Part shown: piece by piece, positions 11,601-57,000 of the stretch | How the letters are laid out: the number at the start of each line of letters is the position of its first letter | Position numbering within the stretch: the first letter of the stretch is position 1 | Source of the DNA: Sphaerodactylus townsendi | Lineage: Eukaryota | DNA: 64,000 nt | NCBI RefSeq assembly: GCF_021028975.2 | Contig: NC_059428.1 | Coordinates: 138,756,001 to 138,820,000 of the forward strand | Direction: 5' to 3' | Position numbers and translations under genes: made by a program | Notes under the pieces: generated by a model | Database searches by the model: none | Told to the model about the DNA's origin: nothing | What the model saw: only the letters and a program-made list of their open reading frames with translations

Positions 11601-14600
11601 GTGCTTCCGTAGATTTTAGCATAGGAAGGGGGGGGGGGGGGAGGCATCTTAAGGCTTTTGGCCTCAGCCTCCAGGATATCACCACTAATATGAGTGGCGG
11701 CAGGGGGGTCCCAGTCCTGCACCCTCTTTCCTGGAAAGCACAAATGTCACTCGCCCCATGCTCTCTGCTCCAAAGTGCCACAGAGTAAGGCAACCTTCCT
11801 GCAGGGCCACACAGCCTCAAAAGGAAAGGGCGGGATGGACTCCACTCACCTGGGTGTGGCTCTGCTGCTCCCGCGCCTGCTGCTGCTGCTGCACCTGTTG
11901 AGCAATCACCTTCAGCTTCTCCGGGTACATGTGAGCCTCCAGAGAGCGCACCTGCCGGCCGAGTGGGGAGAGCCTTGTCATGTGTGCCCCAGAGAGGGAC
12001 CATGGATGCTCAAGCTCTCAGCAACTCGCAGGGGACCCCGCCAACCCCCCTCCCCAACTTTCAGTGCTGAGAAGAAAACATTGTTCCAAGGAACGCATGC
12101 CAGAGAGGCAGGGCTGCCTTCAGAATCCCACACAGGCTCGTGACGAATTTTCAAGCTTCCAATCCCAGCCAGGCAGTTCTCCTTCTGTGCCCCCCCCCCC
12201 TTCCCACTGCACAGGCACTTTTTGGCCCCCCAAATAAAGGCAGAAGTCAGACTGAGCATGAAGCTTGGCTGCGAGGCCTTGTGGAAGGAGGGGCTGGGCT
12301 CCTTCTCCAGCCCCCCTCTGTTCCTTTTGTGGGTGCAAAGGGAACCCCAAAAGTAGCTCCATAACAAGCCCCCCCTTGTGAGAGCCCCTCACAAACAGAA
12401 GAAGAAGAAGAAGAAGAAGAAGAAGAAGAGTTTGGATTTATATCCCCCCTTTCTCTCCTGTAGGAGACTCAAAGGGGCTTACAATCTCCTTGCCCTTCCC
12501 TCCTCACAACAAACACCCTGTGAGGTAGGTGGGGCTGAGAGAGCTCAGGAAAGCTGTGACTAGCCCAAGGTCACCCAGCTGGCGTGTGTGGGAGTGCACA
12601 GGCTAATCTGAATTCCCCAGATAAGCCTCCACAACTCAGGCGACAGAGCTGGGAATCAAACCCGGTTCCTCCAGATCAGAGCGCACCTGCTCTTAGCCAC
12701 TGCTCTTAGCCTCTAAGCCATAGCACCTCGCATGCTTTTGGGCCCAGGAAAGGATTTCCCGAACCGGCCCTGTGCTGCTCCCTCCAACCCCTAGCAGTGG
12801 CTCCTGCCTGCCTCCCCGCCCCCAGGCCTCACCTGCTCCTCCAACATCATGCGGACGGAGCGCTCCTTGTCCAGCTGCTGGCGAAGCTCAATCATCTCCC
12901 GGCGCAGGTCTTCGGCCTTCTCGTCCTCCCAGATGTCCGGCGACCCGATGCCCTCGTCCTTGTCCTCTGCCCTCCGCCGCTTCGGGGAGGAACCGCTGAA
13001 CTCCTGCCAAGCAGAATGAGCTGTGGCTGAGCGGCTGCGAGGACGGCAGAAGGAGGGGAGGGGGGAGAAGCCCACCGGGGCCCTTGCGGGAAGGTGGGGA
13101 GTGGGCCGCCAGAATGGGGGAAAACAGGAGCTCCCCCGTGGCAGCCAAGATACCTGGATGAAGCGCTTGAGCTGGGCGTTCTGCTGAAGCAGCCGGGTCT
13201 TCTCCTGCTCCAGAGAGAAGATGTACTCTGCCGTCTGCTGGAGAATGGCTGCCTGCCAGAGGGAAGAAGCAAGTGTGTGGGAAGAGCCGCACTCGCCTCA
13301 GGCTCCCCCTGCAAGGCTGATGGAGGTCGCAGAGATGAGGCTCTCACAGCCCCAGGGCATTGATCCGCTGTTCTGTGCCAGAGCTGACTTCTGTCGACAA
13401 ACTGCCCCAGCCTTCCCTTTGACCCGGACAGCCTAGCGGAACCACAGCACACAGGACATTTGCCCAATATGAGCCCAACGGCTCAGAAACAAGTACCTTG
13501 AGAAACCCAGGCTCCTTGCGTTTGGTGCACTGACAAGTATACCACACCGAACACTGAACGTGCCCAGCCCCTGAAGCCACCCACATGGAAGAAGGGGCCT
13601 GCTGGAACTCTCCGCAGTGCAGGAAGCTGGCCTCCAGAGCATCTGCAGGTCTTGTCTTCACATTGCCAGGAAGGGGAGACATTTAGGCACCTGCCACCCC
13701 TCGGACTCCACCTTACCTTGCTGAGCTTCTCCCCGTCTGTGTGAGGAATGAGGGTTTTCAGGGACTGGAAGCCGGCATTGATGCTCTGCATGCGCCGCCT
13801 CTCGTTGCTGTTGGCAATTTCCCTGCGTATCCGCCGCTCCTGGTCTCGCTGTGTCTCTGGGGTCAGTGGGATGTTGGCCAGGCTGCAGAGGAGGCCGGCA
13901 AGTTAGGAAGCAGGCCCCAGATGGACCCCTGGCCTTCAGACCAGGATTACCCCTCCCCCCAGGCTCAGACCCTCTAAAGAGCAGCAGCCCCCAACAGCAG
14001 CGAGACGGGGCCCAAAACGTGACTCCAGGAGTGGGCGAGGGGACGCAAAGACACTTCCCCTGGCCAGCCTTCAGCCAACCAAACAGCCTCTGCAGTATAG
14101 AACACTTCACTTGGAAGAGCAACTTGAAACAGGAATATTTATGACTGCACAGAGTGACTTCTGTTTGCCACTGTGAAAACTCACAGGCACCCAAATTCCA
14201 GGTCCAGGCAAAGTAAACTTCTTCAACAGTCCCCAGCCAACAGCCTCCTCTGCTCGGGCTGGCCAAGCACCCTCACTGATGGCCGTGCCCCCTCGCTCAC
14301 GGAGACCTGACCCATGCCAACAAAGAGGCCAGTGTGCCCACAATCCCCTTGCTTGATCCCCGAAAGCTGTTCCAGGCATTGCTGCTTGCAAACTTTATTT
14401 ATTTCAAACCTTTGCACGCTGCCTGTTCAAGGCAACTCATCAATGAATGGGTGAAATTGGGAAAATGTACAAATCAATAAAATTTGGAAGCATTCAAGAC
14501 CCAGCCCAGGAAACTGCACCAAATTTCCTGCTCCTGTGACCTGAAGCTAACCTGGCAATTCTCAACTTCGGGGCCCATTACTGGATATTCCCTGCTTGAC

Positions 14601-26901: not shown

Positions 26902-27185
26902 AGAAGAGTTGGATTTATATCCCCCCTTTCTCTCCTGTATGAGAATCAAAGGGGCTTACAATCTCCTTTCCCCTCCCTCCCACAACAAACACCCTGTGAG
27001 GTGGGTGGGGCCGAGAGAGCTCCGAAGAACTGGGACAAGCCCAAGGTCACCCAGCTGGCATGTGTTGGAGTGCACAAGCTAATCTAGTTCACCAGATAAG
27101 CCTCCACAGCTCAAATGGCAGAGCAGGGAATCAAACCTGGTTCTCCAGATTAGAGTGCACCTGCTCTTGACCACTGCACCATTGT
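26902..27185 (-). mobile_element. tRNA-derived SINE
   Basis: Same family as 12397-12720; additional head fragment at ~27360-27430. Confidence 0.8.
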
Positions 27186-27490
27186 AGTGACAGGGACCCA
27201 TTCAAAAGAAGAGGGAAGGAGAGTCAGTGGGTCTCCTGACTGTGACTGAGTGCGCAGTGGGGGCTTCCCACTAGGCAGAGTGGTGGGCAAAAGGGCTGGC
27301 AGCAGGGTGGGGGGGAGCCATTCTGACAAGATCAGTAAAAACAATGGGGTCCACCTGGCTGCTTGAGTGGGGAATCAAATCTGGTTCTCCAGATTAAAGT
27401 ACACCTGCTCTTAACCGCTACACCACACTAGTTCTCCGCATAGGCGCAGCTGGGTGCCTGGCTTTGTAAGCCCCCTGAGGATGCAGAGAT

Positions 27491-28196
27491 TTTAAGATTA
27501 TTTCTAGGGGAAGGATGACACTGTATAAAAATGTTAACCCTAAGATGAAATCAAGTTATTGAGAATCGGTATACTGAGGAAGAAACCTTTGAAAACGCAT
27601 TCAGACGCGTGGTGCGATTCTATACCGGATTCTCAGTTTTAATGTACCATCGATGTATGGACTCAAGACACAGGATACACTAGCTCTGTTGTGAAGTTCC
27701 ATTTAGGAATCACATAAAATGGAAACATCAAATTTCCCTTGGAATTGAACATTGTACAGTCTCATATGGACTTATGAACATTTGCTTTACAATATATGTG
27801 ATGAGAATCTGTGAAGTTCCATTTGGGAACCACATAAAAAATGGAAATGTAAAAATTTCTTGGAACTCATCAATTTGAAGTCTCATATGGACTTTTGAAT
27901 ATACACTTTACAAATGAAATGATGAAGATTGTACATTGATTTGTTTTATTGACACTGGCATGTAAATGTATTGCACTTTATTACTTTCATCAATAGGTTA
28001 TTAGAATAGGGTTAGAATTGAAATAATTGTGTTAATATTTATATGAAAAATATTTGAAAAAATAATTTTGTACAAATGTTGTTGGAATGATTTATTACAA
28101 TTGTCATATATACATAAGTCCAAGTTAGTGTGCCAATTTGATTTGTTCATTCCTGTCATATTATACTTGGCACGCTAGTTTCAATCTTGTTTGCTT
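27491..28196 (+). mobile_element. AT-rich non-coding retroelement carrying the hammerhead (Penelope-like pLTR / retrozyme-like)
   Basis: Sharp AT-rich island flanked by gatgcagagat (27480-90) / gatgcaaagat (28197-207); internal ~120-bp tandem duplication; 3' hairpin; no ORF. Confidence 0.55.
27560..27635 (+). ncRNA. Type I hammerhead ribozyme motif
   Basis: Stem I tgagaatcggtata(27560-73)/tataccggattctca(27621-35), 14 bp with 1 bulge; core CUGAGGA 27574-80; short stem II 27581-90; GAAA 27591-94; stem III a-cgca...ugcg(a)u; cleavage triplet UUC ending at 27620. Confidence 0.7.
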
Positions 28197-29399
28197 GATG
28201 CAAAGATCTCATCAGTGAATCAGTTTCCCACCCAAGAGTTTGGCCACTGAGGAGACCCTCATGCCCCCCCCCCAGCAAATAATTGCTAGCTCCCTAAAAT
28301 GGCTTTCAAAAGGATTTCTCCCAAGACGGAGTCACAGCGAATAGAACACCTGTAGGGAAGGGTGACAGCTAAGGGAGTGGAGTGCTACCTCGCAGGGCCG
28401 TTGCAGAGGAGAAAGGAAGATCATCACATTTGCACTCCTTCAAGTAAATTAGTTTCATTTGTTTTATGCACACTGAGCGCAGGTCTCAAAGCACCAGCTC
28501 GCCAGAAGGAAGAGGCAAGCCCCACCCCTGTGCTGCCCTGGTCAAGTCCAGCACTTGGGGGCCGGACTGGGAAAGGGAAGTCAGAGGGCCAATCGGATTC
28601 CAGGGATCTATCGAGAAGGGGGCTGTTTTTACAGGCACCAGTGAAGCAGCAGCACAGGGGGATGCAGAAGCACACAACTTGAGCCGGGCTGCACCCAAGA
28701 AAGGAGGATACTTGTGGGGCAGCCACCCCATGGCCAGGCCCTCTGGAATGGCAATGGGCTCCACACCCAGTCACAGTGACCCGTTGACTTCGGCAAGAGT
28801 CCCGTGGCCCTGCAATGTTTGGGTTGGTCCTCAGAGAGGGGCCTGAACCTTTTTCAGTTTGTTGAGTTCATCCGTAGGTCAATAAAACATTCTGCTCTTG
28901 TTTTGTCTCAGTGGTCAGCCCAGTGCTCTGAGTACACCCACTGCTCCAGGCCAAATCCCAGCTATCCACCAGCAGAGGTTGGCAAAGATTCTTCCGTGCC
29001 CAAGACTGTGGCAAGTAGCCAAGGGGGAAGAAGGGCCCTGCTCTGCCAGGGGACAATGCTGGATGGAGTCAGCCAAGCAAGGGACCCTTTCCCTACAATG
29101 CCTCCCAAGGGACTTGCTGCCCTCCATCCACTAGGTAATATTGCCCAGCCTGGCATCTGGCTCATGCACCTGCTGCCTGTTCAGCTTCGCCTGTGTTACT
29201 GCAAGCACCTGGGCATTTTCATTTTCTCTCTACCTGCCTCGCAAGCGTGCTTCAGGTTTCCCTACATGCTGAAGGGATTCATTCGGCCACAGGAGGAAAG
29301 AAGCAGGGGTGCCACCTCCGGTCCTGGAGCCATGGCAAGAACTGACCAGGGCGATGCACAGTCCACCTCTCCCGCGTTTTGCACCCAGGCCCTCCAGCT

Positions 29400-38740: not shown

Positions 38741-41700
38741 GTGAGTGCAGGGCCCAGGGGGGGGGGGGAGCAGAGTGGGGTGCAATCTTGGGTTGAGGCT
38801 GGCACAAACCTTTGCCTCTGGCTGGCACGGAGGGTTATGGGATGGGGTGCCTCAGGGGCTGCCAAATACCCTCCATTTCCTCCCCCGCCCCATGCCTCTA
38901 TTGTGCAGCAGGTCTCTTGGCACACTCCAAAGGACGTGAGGACTTCTCCTCGCCCCCCACCATTGACCTGAGCCTGTCTCCACCTTCAGGCCTGGACTCC
39001 CCCAGCGGCAGCACCTCCCTCTCCCCGGACAGACCCAGCAGCGGGGAGCTGGTGAGCTCCGCCACCCTCCGAGTGAGTTGCTCTTCTGTGGCTCTATGTG
39101 TGTGTGTGTGGGGGGGGGGAGAAGGGGGAGCGGGGGAAGGGGCCTAAGCAAAGCAGGGTGAATGGAGGCCTGGCCAGTGCCTCCAAGATCCTAATTTGGC
39201 CCTCTGAATTACTACGGCACTGACCGTATGGGGTGCTTCAGGGACTCCAGGTGGACACTCTGCTCTCCCTCCTCCTCCTTCCCCCCACGGAGTGCAAAGT
39301 GGTTTAAAAATGCTGCTGTGCTGCTCCCTACAACAGGCCTGCAAGGTAGGGCATGCGTAAACATGTCCTCTGGTCCCCCTGCACAGGAGCTCCAGTCCCT
39401 GCGCTACATCGAAGGCCTGCAGCGCTCCTTCCAGTTCTTCCTGCCCCTGAGCTCTGGGGGCATGCTGCACCTGCCTGCCTCGGCTTTCCTGGGCCCCCCC
39501 AAGGAGAAGCGGCTCTCCCCAGACCTCCCCCTTCAGAAGCAGCTGGTGTGCCGGTGGGCCAAGGTGAGAGAGGACTGGGTGCATCAAGCACTGCTGGCGG
39601 GTACCTCTGTTCTCCCCACAAGCCACCAAATGCCCCCTTCTTCCTCCTGCCCCCCACAGTGTAACCAGCTCTTTGATCTGCTGCAAGACCTTGTGGACCA
39701 CGTCAACGACTTCCACGTCAAGCCCGAGAAGGACACCGGCTACTGCTGCCACTGGGAGGGATGTGCGCGCCACGGCCGGGGTTTCAATGCCAGGTGAGCC
39801 TGTTCCCGGGGGCCCCTTGCCATGCGACTGCCCAGCTGAGCCCGGAGGGGTGGAATGAGCCACTGCTGATGTGGAGGTTGGCTTGAGCTGCTGCGGAGTA
39901 GGGGGGGAGCCAGGGTCACGTTCCACTCAGCCATAAAACCATGTAACCTCGCAGGGTTGTAGTAAGGGGCCCCCCCTCGCTTCAGCCCCAGCCCCCATCA
40001 GCCAGGATACTCATAAGGAGCTGCCAAGATGCGTCCCTCCTTCCCTCAAGCACCCCCAATGCAGAAGCACTGCTGTGCCTCCTGTCCAGGGAGACTTGTG
40101 TCCAAGGAGGAAGCCCTGGGGGTGGCGGACACAGCCAGGGGTGTGTGTGGGGGTGTGTGTTGGCGTAGCTTAGGCCCGGTTCTTTCCCAAGAGCCTATTT
40201 TTAACATCGGGCCTCTGCCTGACTCAGGAGCTGGCCTGCCTGCCTGCCTTGGGGGGGCCCAGGCGGAGCTGTGAGGGGGGCACCAGGCGGAGAGTCACTT
40301 TTTGAACGGCCTGAAAGGGGGGGGGCAGCCACCATGACCTGGCTGGCCAAAGTAGCCCCTCTCTTCGTCAGATCTTGGAAGCCAAGCAGGGTCTGCCCAG
40401 GTTGGCACTTGAATGGGCGACCCCCAAGGAAGTCCAGGGTTGGGGTGCGGAGGCAGGCGGGGAAACCACCTCTGTTAGTCTCTCGCCTTTAAAACCCCAC
40501 GGATGGCGAAAAAACAAAATGAAAGAGGGGAACCTGGCCCAGTGCCCTCCCTGTGGCTCGGAGGCGGCACTTTGGGCACCTTTTGGGTGGAGGAAAAGGG
40601 GAGAGCAGCGGCCGCTCATTCTTCCCCTCCTGCAGGTACAAGATGCTGATCCACATTCGCACCCACACCAACGAGAAGCCGCATCGCTGCCCCACCTGCA
40701 ACAAAAGCTTCTCCCGGCTGGAAAACCTCAAGATCCACAACCGCTCCCACACAGGTGAGTGGCCAGGTGGGGTGATTAGCTTTTTGTGCGCCATTGCCGT
40801 GGCGGCAGCAGGCCTTCTGTCTCTTCCTCGCACTGTGGCATCCGGCCAGCACGCGTGTGCACGCTTCGCTTGGGATTGCGAGGGTCTGCCAGCTGCCACA
40901 ATTGGTTCCCTTTGTTGCTTGGGAATGCGCCAAAGCACTGGGTGCGGGGGAGTTGCAAACACTCCCACTTGCTGAATCCATCCATGGTGCTCAGCCCCCA
41001 GCCCCTCCTGAGTCTCTGCTGCCTCAATGGCTGTGCTTGGGGACAACCCCAGTGGAACAAGGGATTCCCTCCCGCATCTTGTTAAAAGGGAATCCATCTG
41101 TAATTCTGATAGTACAAAAGAATAAAGGGCTGAGTTTGGTTCTCTGAAGTTTTAACCGGCAAACCAGACAGAATGCTGGGAAGAAACTTTTTTTATCTTT
41201 CTCTGAGAATAGAAAAGATTCTCTTTAGAGCAAGAGAAAAAAAAATATACAGGCATGAAAAAATGGGTCAAACAATTACTGGGAAGATAAATGCTAAAAT
41301 TATCAAAGTTTCTAGCATCGCTTAATCATGTCAGAGCCAGCAATAGCTTTAAAAGCCAATCAGGTTTCAGCTATTGCTGCATTTAGGGGTTATTCAAGCG
41401 GCCAAATTATCTCACCTGGTCTTCTTATGAGACTTCCATCCAGGGAAATCTGGTTTGCTTGTCACAGTTGTGCGTGTCTGTAGTCCTCTTTCTGGACAGT
41501 TATCTTTCTCTCAAGTCTGTTCTAGCATAGTCATCGAGTTATCATCAACTGATTGATTCTTAAATATGAGATAATCAAAGTAAGGGCCAATCAGCAGAAC
41601 ACAGATGAGTTACATCTGATATGGCAAGATAAGAAGGCCAATCTCAGCTGCAATTAATCTAACTTTTCTGCAAGTGTTTCAATTAACCGTCAAAGTCAAA

Positions 41701-42716
41701 AATAGCTTCAAGCAAACACGGTTTACAGACAGCTTAAAAGTGTGTGAACTCTCAGTTAATTTCTAAGCTCTGCAAGAAAAGCGTGGGGATGGTGTAGCTA
41801 CCACACCAGTGCCAGGCAGGGGGTCCCAGAGTGGCACAAGACCCCCACCCCCACCCTGCCAGGGCTGGGATCCTGCCACACATGCTCTTCTCAGGTGTGT
41901 CTGTCCTCTCACCCCTCCCTCGCAGGCGAGAAGCCCTACGTCTGCCCCTACGAGGGCTGCAACAAACGCTACTCCAACTCGAGTGACCGCTTCAAGCACA
42001 CGCGCACCCACTACGTGGACAAGCCCTACTTCTGCAAGATGCCCGGCTGCCATAAGCGCTACACCGACCCCAGCTCCTTGCGCAAGCACATCAAGGCGCA
42101 TGGCCACTTCATCTCCCAGGAGCAGCAGGAGTTGCTGAAGCTGCAGCCGCCTGCCAAGGCCCACCCCGCCGGTGCCACAGACTTGCCCTTCATCAGCGGG
42201 GCGCAGCTGGTCATCCCCAACCCTGCCGCCCTTTTTGGGGGCCACAGCCTGCCTCTGCCCCTGCCGCCTGCCCCACTGGACCTCAGCACCTTCACCTGCG
42301 GTGGGATTGGAGCTGCCGCGCTGCCAGGCCTGCCCGGGCCCATGATGGCGCCCCTGAACTTGGCCAAGAACCCCCTGCTCTCCTCCACCTTCACCGCCAG
42401 TGGCCTGGGACTGCCCATCGTGTCTCTGCTTGCCGGGGCTTCTGCCAAAGCTGGGGCCGAGAGGGGTCACCTGGGCTGCGGCCCCAGGCCAGGTAGAGGC
42501 AGCTGCCCGCAGGGCCCCCAGAGCTGCAAGGAGGCCAACGAGCGGGCTGAGCTGGCCAGGCGTCGGTCCCCCCCAGAGGGCCTCTCGCTGCTTCCAGGGG
42601 CCGTCTTGGACCTGACAACGGGCGTGAACTCGGGGGGAAGCACCGACACCCTGCCTCCGGGCTGGGTGGTCATCCCGACGGGCTCCGTTTTGCCGAAGCA
42701 AGCCGTGGTGAACTGA
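38560..42716 (+). CDS. GLIS2: GLIS family zinc finger 2, full gene span, 6 coding exons, ~521 aa
   Basis: join(38560-38740,38909-39072,39387-39563,39660-39793,40636-40754,41926-42716) = 1566 nt. Start [18 protein letters not shown], five Gli-type C2H2 fingers, C-terminus [19 protein letters not shown]. Confidence 0.97.
38909..39072 (+). CDS. GLIS2: GLIS2 coding exon 2 (alternative start 38912)
   Basis: [41 protein letters not shown]...ATLR|gtgagt; tandem CAGCAG acceptor. Confidence 0.9.
39387..39563 (+). CDS. GLIS2: GLIS2 coding exon 3
   Basis: [21 protein letters not shown]...KQLVCRWAK|gtgaga, 177 nt. Confidence 0.95.
39660..39793 (+). CDS. GLIS2: GLIS2 coding exon 4 (ZF1-ZF2)
   Basis: [44 protein letters not shown], 134 nt. 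Confidence 0.96.
40636..40754 (+). CDS. GLIS2: GLIS2 coding exon 5 (ZF2-ZF3)
   Basis: [39 protein letters not shown], 119 nt. Confidence 0.96.
41080..41766. mobile_element. Possible solo LTR in GLIS2 last intron
   Basis: Abrupt AT-rich 690-bp island starting tgttaa and ending ttctaa, three CCAATC motifs, no ORF; TSD not clean. Confidence 0.45.
41926..42716 (+). CDS. GLIS2: GLIS2 last coding exon (ZF4-ZF5, C-terminus)
   Basis: [59 protein letters not shown]...AVVN*. Confidence 0.96.
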
Positions 42717-45157: not shown

Positions 45158-46163
45158 CTGCAGGGCAGAGGCAGGGTTAGTTAGCAAAGGGCGCTTGTCA
45201 GGAATTGCCTGGCAGCCAAGGCAGAACTCCCCTTCTCCCCACACACCCACCTGCCAGGACTAGAGAAGATGCTTTGGGGGGGGGTTGGTTCTCCTCTTCC
45301 CTAATTAACTTTCAGAACCCTGTGAGGAGGGCTAGGGCTTGCGTGCATGTGACTGCCGCCCAGCGAGCTTCCAAGGTGTGAGTGGGGATCTGAACCGGGA
45401 CTTGCCGGATCTTGGTCTGAGCCTGCGGGACCCGAGCCCCAGTCGTGGCTCCTCCCTCTTTCCCACCCTCCCACTCACCTTGGACTGCAGATAGAAGGAG
45501 CCCCCCACGGCCTTGTCGTTCACTTTGAATAGATGCTCGTAGTTCTGCAGGGAGAAGCCGGAGAGGGGCGTCGGTCGGGGGCAGCATTCGGGGAGGTGTG
45601 GGTGGAGGGGGGGGTGTATCCCTGCCCAGTACGCATGCGCACAGCAAGGGGGGTTGTCACCGGTGCCGCCATTTTACCTTCTGGACGAGCTCTGGGTCCA
45701 GCGTGGAGACATTGAGGATCTGCTGGGCTTCCTGCAGAGTTACTCCGGAGGCGCTAGAGGCGGCGGCCTCGGCGTGGGGGCGACCTCGGGCTCCTGCGGC
45801 GGCTTGGCTGGCTGAGGGCCGGAAGGAAGGGTCAGGGCGGGGGGCTACGAGACCCCCAAGACCCCCGGGGGAGGGGGGGAGACCGACTCACCTGCGAACT
45901 CCTGGCGCAGCGCCCGCGCAAAGGCCCTGCCCACCACCTGCACGCCCACCAGCACGATCTGCGCCAGGTACTTGGCCTGCAACGGAAGTTCGCGCCGCTC
46001 AGCACAAGAGGGGGGGCGCTCAGGCGGAGCCCCCTTTCCCCCTCGCGCGGTACTCCGCCCTCCCGCCCCCGCCCGCCGCATGGCGGGGCTTGGAGAGGGA
46101 GGCGCCCTTCCTCCTCCGGAGGGGTCCGAGCTGCTTCCCCCCTCCCCGCCTGCCTCTCACCAT
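45071..46163 (-). CDS. PAM16: Presequence translocase-associated motor 16 (Tim16/Magmas), 5 exons, 124 aa
   Basis: join(46161-46163,45892-45976,45678-45811,45479-45544,45071-45157) = 375 nt: [125 protein letters not shown]-like domain lacks HPD (DKA instead). Confidence 0.96.
45479..45544 (-). CDS. PAM16: PAM16 exon 4
   Basis: [22 protein letters not shown], 66 nt. Confidence 0.95.
45678..45811 (-). CDS. PAM16: PAM16 exon 3
   Basis: SQAAAGARG...[21 protein letters not shown]|gtaaaa, 134 nt. Confidence 0.94.
45892..45976 (-). CDS. PAM16: PAM16 exon 2
   Basis: [28 protein letters not shown]+G|gtgagt, 85 nt. Confidence 0.95.
46161..46163 (-). CDS. PAM16: PAM16 exon 1 (ATG only)
   Basis: ttccATG|gtgaga, phase-0 join to exon 2. 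Confidence 0.85.
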
Positions 46164-51000: not shown

Positions 51001-54000
51001 ATCCTGGGCACGTGGAAGCCTACGGGCTCAATAGAGGTCTGCCTGAGACGCAGGGCCCGGGCGATCTCCACCTCACGCACGTCACACTCCGGCTTGGGCA
51101 GGAACTGGAAGCCCTGGAGAGGTGCAGAGGTCAAAGGGACATGACTGCGAGCTCATGGCACACAACTCATCTCTGGCCACCCCGTCCATCCACTGCACTA
51201 TGGATGAAGAAGGCCTCTCCAGTGACACAAGTGCTCTGCCTGTAGACAGCCACCAGGGGGCAGACTGACAATATGTTTGACAGACCACAGAAACTGGTGA
51301 GAGAAGAGCCAGCTGTGCAGGGATAGTTCTAGCCCCCCCACCCTGGGCTTTCCCCAGGAGGAGGGAACTGAGGGTGTTGCTACTCCAAGGGGTGCAATTG
51401 GGGTCTCCTGCAGGCATTAACACCCCTTCCTCCTCACAACCTCCCCAGCAGAGGAGGTCTTCCGACATCCTGTTTCTAACTTAAGGCGACATCCTGTTTC
51501 TAACGCAAGGCGCAAAGGCACCATCACTTGTCTCCCATTAGAAGGAAAAGAAGAGTTTGGATGCATGCCCCGCTTTTCTTTAAGGAGTCTCAAAGCACCT
51601 CACAAAGCACCCTTTCCCTTCCTCTCCCCACAACAGGCTCCTTGTGAGGTGGGCGGGGCTGAGAGGGTTCAGAGAGAACTGGGACTGACCCAAGGTCACC
51701 CAGCAGGATTCATATGAAAGAATGGGGAATTAAACCCGATTCTCCAGATTAGAGTCCACTGCTCCTCACCACACCACATTGGCTCAGGGAAAGTGCTTCT
51801 GACTATGGAGGTTCTCTTTAGCTATCACGAATGAGAGATGCTCCCTTTGGGGGACAGGTTCCTTTCAGTTTCTAGCTGCAGTTGTAGTCGGCTTTCTTTT
51901 TATCTTTCTGGCCTTTATGGGGAAGGTGGAAGGCATGGATCCCACTGGCTGAGGTCTGCCCTGCTGAAGGACCCAGTGGGGGCAGCAGGAGCCCTCCTTT
52001 CTTCATGGCCCCCCTCCCGCATGGAGGTCTCCTGGCTCCTCTCCTCTGTCATCCCTGCCGGCCTGCTCACCTTGTGGGGCTCGTTGGAGAAGAAGCTGTT
52101 ACACTCCAGAAAGAAGGGTGCCTCGGGAACAATTTCATACACAAAGACTCGGGTGTCCCCCTAAAGATGGGGCAGGAAAAAGAGGCTGGAGCTGAGTTGG
52201 GGGTGGGGGGTGGGCGAGGGACTACAGTCAGCCCTGCCCGGCCCGTGGCTCTTCTGTGCAAAAGCAGGCCAGAGACTTTGGCGCCAACTCTGGCCAGTGC
52301 TAGAGCAAGGCGATGCAGCAGCAGAGGAGTGTAGCCACCAGGGGCTGAGCTTTATGCAAAGTCTCCCCCCTCCCCCCGCTTCCACTGGCCATCCGAGATG
52401 CGCGCAGGAACGCCAACCTGCCTTCCGCCCAGCAATACAGAGCAGAGAATGGGGCTGGGACACACCTCTGGGTTCCAAAGGTGGACCCCGGGCCGGCTGG
52501 CCACCCACTCACCTTGCCTGTCAGGAAGAGCAAACCCGTGTCCATGTCATAGTAGGGGATGAGGGTGGATGGAGAGACGTCGAGGCTGATGTGGGCCACA
52601 GGTCCATTTGCCAGGAACTCTGCACGGTACAGGCAGAGCTGACGTTCGCTATGGCTAAAGAGGTGGGGGAGAGAGTGGATGAGGCCCCTGGGCTGGCTGG
52701 CCTGCCAGCATGTGGCTCCTGGGTCGAAGGGAGATGCTCTGGGTCTTACCTGTCAAAGCCCGACACCAGCAGGTTTTTGCCTCCACACATCCAGACAATG
52801 CGGGCCCCCCGGCCTCCCTCGGGGCCTGGGCCTTCCTGACATGCGACAAGGAGAGAGATGGGAGACTCAAGTGACATTCTGCATGATGTCAGTAACCCAA
52901 ACACCTCTTCCTGCCACAACAGGACTCTCAGCCTGGGGACAGCAGCAAGCCTCTACGACGCCCCTACCCCATACCTTGACCTCTTTCCAGTGACGAAAGG
53001 AGGGGGAACTGCGCCCGGAGCACGAACTGCCTCCCCGGTCCCGCCTCCCCTTGTGACTTCAATGGCGGTGCCCAGGACAAGGCTCCCCGGATGTCCCCAT
53101 TGCAGCTAGGTGCCTGCCTCTTCATCTCCCTTCCCAGCTTAGGTCCCAGAGGGGGCCCAGGCTGCAGTACATCAATCAGGTCAGGGGGAACAGGAGAGGA
53201 GGGCCCTTCCTCCACCTCTGCTTCCAAAGCACCCACAGTTCTCCACGCTCAGAGATGCACCGCTTCCCCGACTGCCTGGGCTCGCTCACCTGCGTGGGCT
53301 GGGCTGCTTGTCGGGGCTCATAAACCCGCACTTTCCCATCCTTGCACACGGTGGCCAGGTGGCATCCGTTTGGGCTCCAGGCCATGCTGAAGATCTGCAA
53401 AGGTCCCCAGAAGAGGTCAGCCCCCTGGTCTCTGGGGCGTGGGGCTTTGTGCAGAGGGCTCAGGCCCAGAGGGGCTTCCTCCAACCCCTCCCCCCAGCCA
53501 AGCAGGGGCCACTGCATCACTAGTGGTGACCCACATCTGGCAGCCCACGCCCTGCTCCTTGGGAGATGCCATGGCTGCTGAGTCCTTCCTCAGAGAAATG
53601 GGGAGAGCCGGTAATCTTCATGGAGGCCGCTCTCTTTCCCCACCTGCCTTCCTACCTGGTCCCCGTGTCCATTGAGAAGCAGCGCTTGTTTCCCTGAGCG
53701 TGCATCCCAGATCCGGATGCTCAGGTCATAGGAGGAGGAGGCCAGGATGTCTGCAGCCAGCGGGTGGAATTTGATGGCGTAAATCTTCTCCGTGTGACCT
53801 GGGAGGGAAGGGTCCAGGGATGCTCTCTGGTCCTGCAGTCCCTCCAGACCTGCCAGGCCAGGGTGAGCAGAGGAGCAGGGGACTCATTGCCCCCCCCCCC
53901 ATCCTGTGGAGCCTCCTACCTCGCAACACAGCCTCAGGTTCTCGCAAGCTCTCCTGCAGCCCTTCCGGTGGGACCCGCCACAGGCGGATTCTGGCATCTT

Positions 54001-57000
54001 CCCCGGCTGCATGAGAAAACCAAGCGGAGGTCCTGAGCCAAGTGCTGGTCTTGGCTGCTCTGGCTGGACATCAGCCGCCGTGGCACTCCAATGCCCACAA
54101 GGAAGATTCAGCAGGGCCTCCTCTGTGACCCCCCCCACACACACACACACACACTAGGGCAGCCTCGGGGTTCCACAGCTCAAAGTCACTCACCAATAGC
54201 CAGGCGCTCCAGATCAAAGGGGTCCCAGCACAGGTCGGAAACTGGAGCCCCGTTCTCGATGGTAGGCAGGGAAACGTCAGGCAAGCGACCCGGCTGGGAC
54301 AGCTAGTGAGGAACCACCGCGTGTGCGTGAGCGCTCGAGAAGGGAGCCTACTCCTCCACTTGCAGGGAGGTCATGGGGAGGGTGGACCCACTTCCTGGGG
54401 CTGCACAGATGCCTTCCCCCAGTTTCTCCAGCACCTCCAAGAAGTGGACAGCCAGCACAGCGAACACCTGGGAAGGAGGGGCCCTGGTGTTTTGGATCCC
54501 AAGGAGCTGGGAACCGAGGTCAGGCAATGGCTTTGTCCCTTGGATGGGGCATGGACTGGGGCAGCTGAGGGGCAGGGGGCAGGCTGGCTGCTTTGGGAAG
54601 CCCTGCCCATCGAACAGCCGCCCCCCCCCCCACCACCGCCTGCCTTTACCTCCAAGATGGCCACCTGCCCTCCTGCAGAGAGCAGCGGGACGGCAACGTG
54701 TCGCTGGTTAGCACAGAAGCCGTCCGACTCGCCTGGCGTGGTGAGGTTCAGCCCCTTGAGGTTGGTGAAGTGGGTGCCGCGGGGCAGGACGGTGCCCTGG
54801 ATGTGGCGGAAGCCGGAGCTGGGGCCTAGGGCAGAAGGCGCAGAGGATGAAAGGCCAGCTTCCCAGGGAGCCTTGCTGGGAAACTGGGCCTCCTAGGTGG
54901 TGGCTAGTGGAGAGAGCTGGCAAAGGCCCGGCCTCCTGCCCCCGCTCCCCCACACAGAGCCGGTCGGGCCCGGGAGAAGAGAAGCCTGCTTACCCAGAAT
55001 GCTCTGCAAGGACCTCTGGCTCGGGCTAGAGACAAAGCCGCTGGTGGCGGAGAGGGATGCTGCCGTGCTGGAGGGAGACGTCGGGGTGCTGGTGGGAGAG
55101 GACAGGCCGCTGCCCGCCTGGGAGAGCAAGAGAAACACTGCCTGTATATTGGAGAAATTGCAGCTAAGGGCCATCTATGCACTTCGAGAAACTTGAGGGG
55201 AACAGTTGGGGGCAGAACAGTCCACGGAGGGGAGGGCGCCTAGGCCAAAGGGCCTCTCCCCAAACAACATTGTCTAGGCACAGACGCCACTGATGGGTCC
55301 TCCGCCCTCCCCGCTTGGGAGCACCAGGTGCCTCCCATGCCCTAAGAGGCAAAGACCCCCGCAGTCCCACTTGGCCCGCTGTCCTCTCAGCAAGGGCTGG
55401 GGGCACCCACGTGTCGACCAGCAGAGCCTCGAGCACTTGGGTTAGGTTCTGGCCTAGCATTCAGAGACAGGGAGGGGTGCCAGCCACAGCAGCGGGGGGA
55501 GGTGGGGGTGGGGGAAATGCTCACGCTGATATCCAGGTCCTCGGTCTTCTTGTCTGGCTGGGGGGAGCCCAGGGTCTGGCTTTCCAGGTGGAGGCTCAGA
55601 ACACAGCGGGAAGTGAAGGTTCGGCTGGTCCGGTGGGCGGGGTGGAGGCTGATGCGCGGGACCTGGCGGGAGAGAGGCAGGAGAAGGCTGCCCGTCCAAT
55701 GTGGAGGGGTGGGGGAAGGAGTTCTTGACACACCCCTGCCCTCCTTGCTGGTGGGGGCAGCTGCTAGGCCAGCCATGGGCCCAAGAGGACTGCGTGGCAT
55801 CAAAGGCTGCTGTTGGCTGGGTCCTCAGTGCTTGGGGTGGGGGGGGCACTGCCATAGCTGGTGTCCTCTGCCTAGGTCTGAAAGTAGCGATGGTTGCCCA
55901 GAAGAGCACTGACTGGGAACATGCCACAGGGCAGATATGCCCTATGAGGGCTGGCATTCACTGGGAGGGAAGTCTGCCTCTGTGCCCGCCTCTTGGGAAG
56001 CCTTGGGGCCACCGCGCAGCCTCTGCCAGGGCTCTCACCTGGCTGACATCTCCTGCCCACCAGGCCTGAGCAGAGGCCGCAGGGACGTTTCCGACGCAGC
56101 TGGGGAACAGGTCCTCCTGGAACTCCTGCGTGGACTGCAAGACATGCGCTCGGTGGGTGTGCGCCACAACAGCCACATCGCCACACCACGGTGCCGCCTT
56201 TCCCTCTGCCCCCTTTTACCTTCCGTGGCACTTTGTAGCTGACGTGCACGATGGCGCTGTCTGTGAGCTGCAGGACCCGCATGACTTCGCAGGCCAGGAC
56301 GTCCAGGGCCAGCTTGGGCACCTGCGCGATCCCGTGGGCCTTGCTCTCGCTCCGGCACTGGCCGACTAGGCAGAAGCACAGTCAGTGGGGGGGGGGGGGC
56401 AGGACTAACAGTCGGGGGGGCACAGCTGCCAGGGAAGGGACCAAAACCAAGGTGGCGACGGCTCAAACAGCTGCCAGCTCTACCCAAGAGGGGCTGTTTT
56501 CTTTCCCTAGACCTGGGAGCCTCCTTTCATTGCTGGGAAAATGTGTCCACCTCTCCATACCCACACAAAGAATGCCTGCAAAACAGAGGAAGCCCCCCAC
56601 CCCACCCCGGCCTCCTCTTCCAGCAGCCCATTTAGCAGCCGGGACTGGCAAGCCAGCACGGTTGGGGCTGGTGTGCTCTGAAGGTCTGTGCTTGAGGGAT
56701 AAGAACTCTCCCTTGGCCCCAAGAGCTGCAGGTCAAATCTGGGGGGACCCCCTCACCTTCTGTCAGCACTGGCTGTCCAGGCAGCACCTCGTAGCAGAAC
56801 AGCATGTCTTCCCCCTGGAAGGCAAGAACAGAAGAATTTGGAGTTTTATCCCCCCTCTCTCTCCTGTAAGGAGACTCAAAAGGGCTGACAATCTCCTTTC
56901 CCTTCCCCATGGCCCCACAACAGACCCCTTGTGAGGTGGGTGGGGCTGAGAGAGCTCCAAAGAGCTGTGACTAGCCCAAGCTCACCCAGCTGGCGTGTGT

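Follow-up and report, generated by a model that had tools for sequence, protein, structure and literature searches.

The pseudo-LTRs (pLTRs) of EN+ Penelope-like elements (PLEs), i.e. Penelope/Poseidon, Neptune and the anole Poseidon element PAc, are described as carrying, on their sense strand, a type I hammerhead in which A9 is followed by an unpaired base and G10.1 pairs with C11.1 (PMC4209133, PMC8557442, PMC3846280, PMC11167929). This pair is given as highly conserved in PLE hammerheads (PMC4209133). PLEs are further described with TATA boxes, solo pLTRs and TSDs of 8-10 bp (PMC3846280), with inverted 5'-truncated copies (PMC8557442), and with an optional tail of 30-40 bp that marks two RT start sites in the anole element (PMC8557442, PMC11167929). 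Animal PLE hammerheads are reported to be of the dimer type and nearly inactive alone, the anole one cutting only with its protein (PMC4209133, PMC11167929), and uncut RNA is reported as the main insertion substrate of PAc in vitro (PMC11167929). PLE hammerheads in reptiles and dispersed single motifs have already been published (PMC4209133), and PLE-derived retrozymes and their monomers are recorded in four of five reptile genomes (bioRxiv 10.64898/2026.07.22.740005).

The locus described here lies in a window of 64 kb, i.e. the whole stretch of DNA that was analysed. It consists of an AT-rich mobile unit of 706 bp (27491..28196; 31% GC) whose ends read TT...TT and whose sense strand, judging from its fixed right-hand end, would be the + strand. 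The unit is bounded by two 11-mers (27480..27490 on the left and 28197..28207 on the right) that differ at one of 11 letters and are likely to be a TSD. With random positions 707 apart in the window, such a pair occurred in none of 5000 placements at exact edges, in 11 of 5000 at 5-nt slack and in 87 of 5000 at 15-nt slack. An AT-rich island between near-direct repeats, set in a very GC-rich region, had been announced in the original prediction; the 706-bp unit, its repeats and its AT-richness were all recovered, the right edge being fixed independently by other copies, whereas the 1-kb flanks, with 53-55% GC, are GC-rich yet not extreme. The insert position is intergenic. A Pfam scan of 234 frames placed around it a bHLH gene (exons at 13486-13902, - strand), a C2H2 zinc-finger gene (exons at 39195-42713, + strand), Pam16 (exon at 45335-45673, - strand) and a coronin-type gene (coronin/WD40 exons at 53179-54892, - strand), an order that we take to be that of the vertebrate TFAP4-GLIS2-PAM16-CORO7 block. 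The second CpG island of the window begins 1.25 kb downstream of the element, and no second copy of the element was found within the window.

Words of the element were present in 11 sequencing runs from six organisms and four studies; none of these runs is on record as RNA, which carries no weight as to expression. Contigs of four of these 11 runs (X1, X2, X3 and X6, the last three being large runs) were aligned to 27190-28700 at 80% likeness. Relative to the right flank, the median summed contig depth of the interior was 63 in X2, 45 in X3, 8 in X6 and 2 in X1, and that of the hammerhead 523, 244, 201 and 11, respectively, summed contig depth being distinct from copy number. In each of the four runs, the depth of the hammerhead bin was 5-25 times the interior median; that of a bin at a 3' hairpin was 2.1-3.5 times this median in the three large runs and 1.0 times in X1; both structured ends are therefore common to more copies than the middle. 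The element is one dispersed copy of a family that occurs in many copies in several related animals, a status for which the contigs of all four runs provide evidence.

The right end is defined by two kinds of contigs. In X1 records 7 and 8, the likeness ends at 28195 and 28191 and is followed by 124 and 413 unlike letters, respectively; in both X2 and X3, the contigs of the locus itself start at 28166, a position that, with 31-letter words, places the end of the shared sequence at about 28195. Ends of other copies at 28191-28195 therefore support the right edge and the TSD. A second 3' end class at about 28157 is suggested by one contig (X3 record 22, which stops at 28157 with 635 unlike letters beyond), by an ambiguous joint (27503/28127, whose 32-nt short side would end at 28158 if it is a 3' piece) and by a drop of the depth per element base to 0.31-0.65 after 28158 in all four runs, a step that edge effects could deepen. 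The two classes are offset by 34-38 nt and delimit a candidate optional tail (28158..28195, + strand). At the left end, the likeness breaks off at 27493 (X1 record 2), 27503 (X3 record 17, X6 record 26 and the X1 joint) and 27504 (X6 record 27); because this copy starts at 27491, such stops would be expected of a longer element as much as of a fixed 5' end, and the evidence leans towards the repeated stops at 27503-04 being a real 5' boundary. The left junction was found in X1 record 1, and the right junction at this locus in X1, X2 (organism A) and X3 (organism B), its presence in X2 and X3 making the insertion common to at least two labelled organisms, A and B. No empty-site joint (27490>28208) was listed in the four runs, X6 yielding no junction contig of either kind.

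Twelve joints inside the element were listed in the four runs: eight skip 73-451 nt, one repeats part of an internal duplication, one represents an insertion and the remaining two link opposite strands. Most of them are single contigs with short sides and unread letters between, so that each is weak alone. The opposite-strand joints (27503/28127 and 27941/28105) are single contigs of X1, a run whose library kind is not on record. None of the 12 joins a 3' end to a 5' end head-to-tail, it being understood that contigs show presence rather than absence and that rare arrays could escape. As side observations, the joint 27663>28115 would leave a unit of about 255 bp, and the hammerhead block (27547-27648), at 5-25 times the depth of the middle, suggests that this ribozyme also occurs in other subfamilies or in shorter elements.

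The type I hammerhead motif (27560..27635, + strand) was detected by a descriptor search and is the most-shared block of the family, the catalytic block being kept far better than its surroundings. Its helix I (27560-73/27621-35) has 14 bp with a bulge and begins 69 nt after 27491, in agreement with the original placement of the ribozyme about 70 nt from the 5' end. The catalytic core CUGAGGA (27574..27580) is followed by an unpaired A (27581), a trait of the consensus drawn for PLE hammerheads in PMC4209133 (Fig. S3); then come the helix II region (27582-90), the core GAAA (27591..27594), helix III with six pairs, one bulge and a 13-nt loop (27594-99/27613-19) and a UUC triplet (27618..27620), with a predicted cut after 27620. 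The descriptor had no other match on either strand of the 64-kb window; of 20,000 dinucleotide shuffles of the element, 9 matched it. Rfam misses the motif, with no match at the gathering score and no hammerhead among the six matches at E<=10; it gave no SECIS match either. Elsewhere, a scan of metagenomes for the hammerhead motif returned no locus, a scan of viral contigs returned one and a looser pattern returned four; all five loci, which match the searched motif alone and are without helix I and III, were discarded as chance.

Letters of the other copies were compared within the hammerhead among 40 of 144 rows, which revealed three places in the motif where this copy differs and, among the variable rows listed, no catalytic-core position. 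Position 27590 (11.1) is U in this copy and C in 98-100% of the depth in all four runs; the G10.1-C11.1 pair therefore forms in the family, and by its letters this copy has lost it. At 27584, other copies read T, so that helix II is reduced to two pairs, against three weak ones in this copy (9 nt between the unpaired A and GAAA); at 27626 they read A, which turns the bulge of helix I into an internal loop. CpG decay fits only one of the 31 rows tested (the 11.1 letter; two X1-only rows excluded) and was rejected as the overall cause of the differences. In the predicted ensemble of this copy, from fold models that ignore tertiary contacts, helices I and III form with most pairs at 0.8-1.0, helix II has a probability of 0.0 and the A15.1-U16.1 pair one of 0.03. 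Since neither of the latter forms in this ensemble, the ribozyme of this copy is probably weak or dead. Two further traits were observed. With the family letter at 27584, a complementarity of 5 nt is visible by eye between loop II (27583-87) and the 5' strand of helix I (27568-72), an alternative pairing that could trap the catalytic core in an off-fold, and the loop of helix III contains a CG-rich 6-nt palindrome (27605-27610), possibly a dimer contact.

A single TATA-like box (27524..27531, + strand) was found by sequence scan, 33 nt from the 5' start of the element and 43 nt 5' of the catalytic core, and may act as a promoter in the manner of the pLTR TATA boxes described in PMC3846280. A diverged tandem duplication with a period of about 120 bp, an 11-bp terminal stem (28126-36/28167-77) and the lack of a poly(A) tail had all been foreseen, and all three stood. 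The duplication (27690..27913, + strand) has a period of 121, 1.9 copies and 79% matches; its unit number differs between copies (joints 27713>27840 and 27912>27806), and neither unit folds significantly (z -0.62 and -1.12). The 3' hairpin (28125..28178, + strand), the second most-shared block and a candidate RT-recognition site, has a 12-bp stem including two U.G pairs (z -3.0, with 2 of 200 shuffles as good, for a stretch picked for its hairpin). The longest A run of the element is 3, neither AATAAA nor ATTAAA occurs in it, and no short-repeat tail is present at its 3' end.

The absence of any ORF of at least 60 aa, also part of the original prediction, is correct for Met-started frames and gives way to a stop-to-stop frame of 64 codons at 27684-27875, for which protein searches yielded no homologue. 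A longer + frame (27549-27875) is interrupted by one stop, at which the majority of the depth of the three large runs has a different letter. With an X in place of this stop, the frame was considered as the beginning or the end of a PLE ORF and had no match at E<=0.001 among 1.84 billion representatives; among longer proteins, none of two candidates was retained at E<=1, and its pieces gave no Pfam match and a best Atlas score of 0.76, so that a coding role was rejected. A 26-codon frame 5' of the ribozyme had no match in a Pfam search, the one search applied to it, and a bacterial promoter scan of the element stayed at chance level and is irrelevant here.

We consider it probable that the element is the pLTR unit of a PLE, either copied in trans or remaining after 5' truncation. 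The original prediction had offered a candidate retrozyme or a solo Penelope pLTR, and its pLTR half is the best fit for a multi-copy unit with a fixed 3' end, no poly(A) and a likely TSD. This family resembles the EN+ PLE pLTRs of the sources cited above in its type I hammerhead, which lies on the sense strand, has an unpaired base next to A9 and forms a G10.1-C11.1 pair (lost in this copy); it also shares with them a TATA-like box, the lack of poly(A), a putative TSD within about 7-11 bp (about 10 bp in those elements) and a predominance of single dispersed copies. Possible signs of an optional tail of 30-40 bp and of inverted neighbours may add to the likeness, the 34-38-nt offset between the putative 3' end classes matching the PLE tail and speaking for this reading.

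Several features depart from the published elements. The unit is longer (706 bp) than the rotifer PLE pLTRs, given as about 200 bp, and about 560 nt separate its ribozyme from the 3' end, compared with about 100-150 nt in the anole PLE (PMC11167929). The 56 animal PLE motifs shown in PMC4209133 (Fig. S3) have 2-8 nt between A15.1 and U16.1 and a helix II spanning at least 11 nt. Here, 24 nt (six pairs and a bulge) separate A15.1 from U16.1 where the minimal PLE hammerhead has an absent or tiny palindromic helix III, and the helix II region spans 9 nt, with two pairs by family letters where that type has 3-8 bp. Read from the letters, the proportions are the reverse of those of the animal PLE hammerheads published there: a short helix II with long helices I and III. 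Fungal and protist PLE hammerheads are likewise described with a large helix III and with helices I and II of non-standard size (PMC4209133); the present motif, which is predicted, differs from them in its animal host and in a helix II cut to 2-3 pairs. It also counts against the PLE reading that the second 3' end class comes from one contig, one ambiguous joint and a depth step open to edge effects, that the inverted joints come from two single contigs of one run, and that a link to an RT or GIY-YIG gene is at present hypothetical. Formal PLE membership rests on such an ORF link; in its behaviour, the element is likely to correspond to a PLE pLTR or to a non-autonomous unit that depends on PLEs.

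On the PLE reading, the template would be uncut RNA that includes the TATA box and the whole ribozyme and that starts upstream of this box, because copies keep 130 nt before the predicted cut; this agrees with uncut RNA being the main substrate of PAc in vitro (PMC11167929). Reverse transcription would be primed at either of two sites beside the 3' hairpin, yielding copies with or without the 34-38-nt tail, while PLE enzymes (reverse transcriptase and GIY-YIG nuclease) would nick the target and, through a staggered cut, generate the 11-bp duplication; some insertion events may leave an inverted piece on the 5' side. Movement in trans of a protein-free unit with a fixed start near 27491-27504 is slightly favoured, the alternative being a remnant of a full element after 5' truncation. 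In active copies, the ribozyme would trim or regulate the element RNA. The copy studied here has drifted by a few percent. Taken as a single locus, it is an old insertion that shows no sign of function.

A more far-reaching version, which we hold to be rather doubtful, is that of a discrete protein-free reptile element of 700 bp with fixed ends, borrowing Penelope enzymes and carrying a new hammerhead build: a 2-bp helix II, a long helix III with a loop palindrome and a 13-14-bp helix I with an internal loop. Such a ribozyme would cut as a monomer and would be held off during copying by an alternative hairpin, because 27583-87 of the family is complementary to 27568-72. If true, this would provide a vertebrate retroelement whose ribozyme can be switched, and with it a means of testing what PLE hammerheads do. 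A reptile family with a long helix III and nearly without helix II would be a useful natural variant for the question of the role of hammerheads in PLEs. Its ribozyme build escapes Rfam and probably the usual descriptors too, and is the sole odd feature of the element; as a repeat, it amounts to one more PLE-type family, of a broad kind already known. The literature searched, with reptile retrozyme consensus lists and repeat libraries outside its range, gave no account of this family or of its ribozyme build; the PMC8557442 supplement, searched by term, gave no place for gecko, Anolis or Squamata and one chance motif match in coding sequence.

Alternatively, a LINE (RTE, CR1, L2 or similar) might have mobilized the unit as a SINE-like element whose ribozyme is 5'. 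This would equally place the ribozyme near the 5' end and explain the 3' stem-loop and the 11-bp TSD, and inversions also arise in LINE insertion. This alternative appears unlikely: the element has neither a poly(A) nor a short-repeat tail, and its copies keep 130 nt upstream of the predicted cut, which therefore does not define the 5' end. Its models are the 5'-ribozyme LINEs, whose described ribozymes are HDV-like or twister and not hammerhead, and the schistosome Sm-alpha SINE-like elements. The latter are likewise described as short non-coding mobile units with a promoter followed by a type I hammerhead (PMC6765202), a likeness of layout; the present ribozyme departs from the canonical 6-bp/4-bp proportions.

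An origin as the monomer of a true non-LTR retrozyme would require tandem 700-bp arrays elsewhere, cut at their hammerheads, circularised and reverse transcribed. Animal non-LTR retrozymes are indeed described as protein-free, AT-rich units with a type I hammerhead, a TSD of more than 4 bp and a probable dependence on PLEs (PMC7229834, bioRxiv 10.64898/2026.07.22.740005), all of which agrees with the element; their reported range of 51-972 bp, with vertebrate units up to 972 bp and monomers common, accommodates 706 bp (bioRxiv 10.64898/2026.07.22.740005), and the long helix III could permit cutting as a monomer. The non-coding state, a GC content below 50% and the type I hammerhead expected of a retrozyme were all found. 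Tandem units each with a hammerhead were, however, not seen in these data, where one ribozyme per locus was observed, with none of the 12 listed joints of the four runs running head-to-tail and no tandem copy in the window. Moreover, reptile retrozyme units average 176 bp in the same preprint, a quarter of the present length, and the whole unit is not unusually self-paired (z -1.16, with 4 of 20 shuffles as good). The retrozyme half of the original prediction, and with it the expected circles, is unsupported here and stands little chance in our view; the broader notion of a non-autonomous, ribozyme-carrying retroelement holds as that of a multi-copy non-coding mobile unit.

A solo LTR of an LTR retrotransposon or ERV, or a DIRS terminal repeat, in which the hammerhead would be incidental, is very improbable. 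Size, a TATA box, an internal duplication and a variable interior are common in LTRs, and solo LTRs are marked by TG...CA ends, a TSD of 4-6 bp and a polyadenylation signal. This element ends in TT...TT, is flanked by an 11-bp duplication and lacks a polyadenylation signal; it has just 33 nt 5' of its TATA box, and inverted joints and two 3' end classes are foreign to LTRs. Finally, domestication by the host as a ribozyme or regulatory RNA specific to this locus, close to the GLIS2-like gene and comparable to the conserved intronic hammerheads of amniotes, might be imagined from a position 1.25 kb upstream of a CpG island, from the presence at this locus in organisms A and B and from a 2636-nt X1 contig that extends from within the element into the island, but is scarcely credible for a multi-copy sequence of which this very copy deviates from the family at the conserved helix II pair and has a predicted ensemble devoid of helix II and nearly so of the A15.1-U16.1 pair.

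Some minor observations concern the left flank and run X1. Two SINE-like fragments of very high copy, 84% alike, lie to the left of the element (27121-27188 and 27365-27432), the second attaining 1e5 to 6e6 in summed depth in each of the four runs; in the same region (27302-27451), a single X6 contig skips 148 nt between look-alike motifs, an unrelated feature and possibly an alignment artefact. The squamate host presumed in the original prediction would also fit the flanking SINE. Run X1, whose kind is not on record, has no cover at 27190-27342 and contains a 2636-nt contig that runs from 28067 into the CpG island. Its repeat-to-flank depth ratio is below that of X2 by about 12-fold for the SINE and 30-50-fold for the element. 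From 27390 to about 30700, X1 looks RNA-like, which may be a weak indication that a transcript crosses the element close to the promoter of the GLIS2-like gene.
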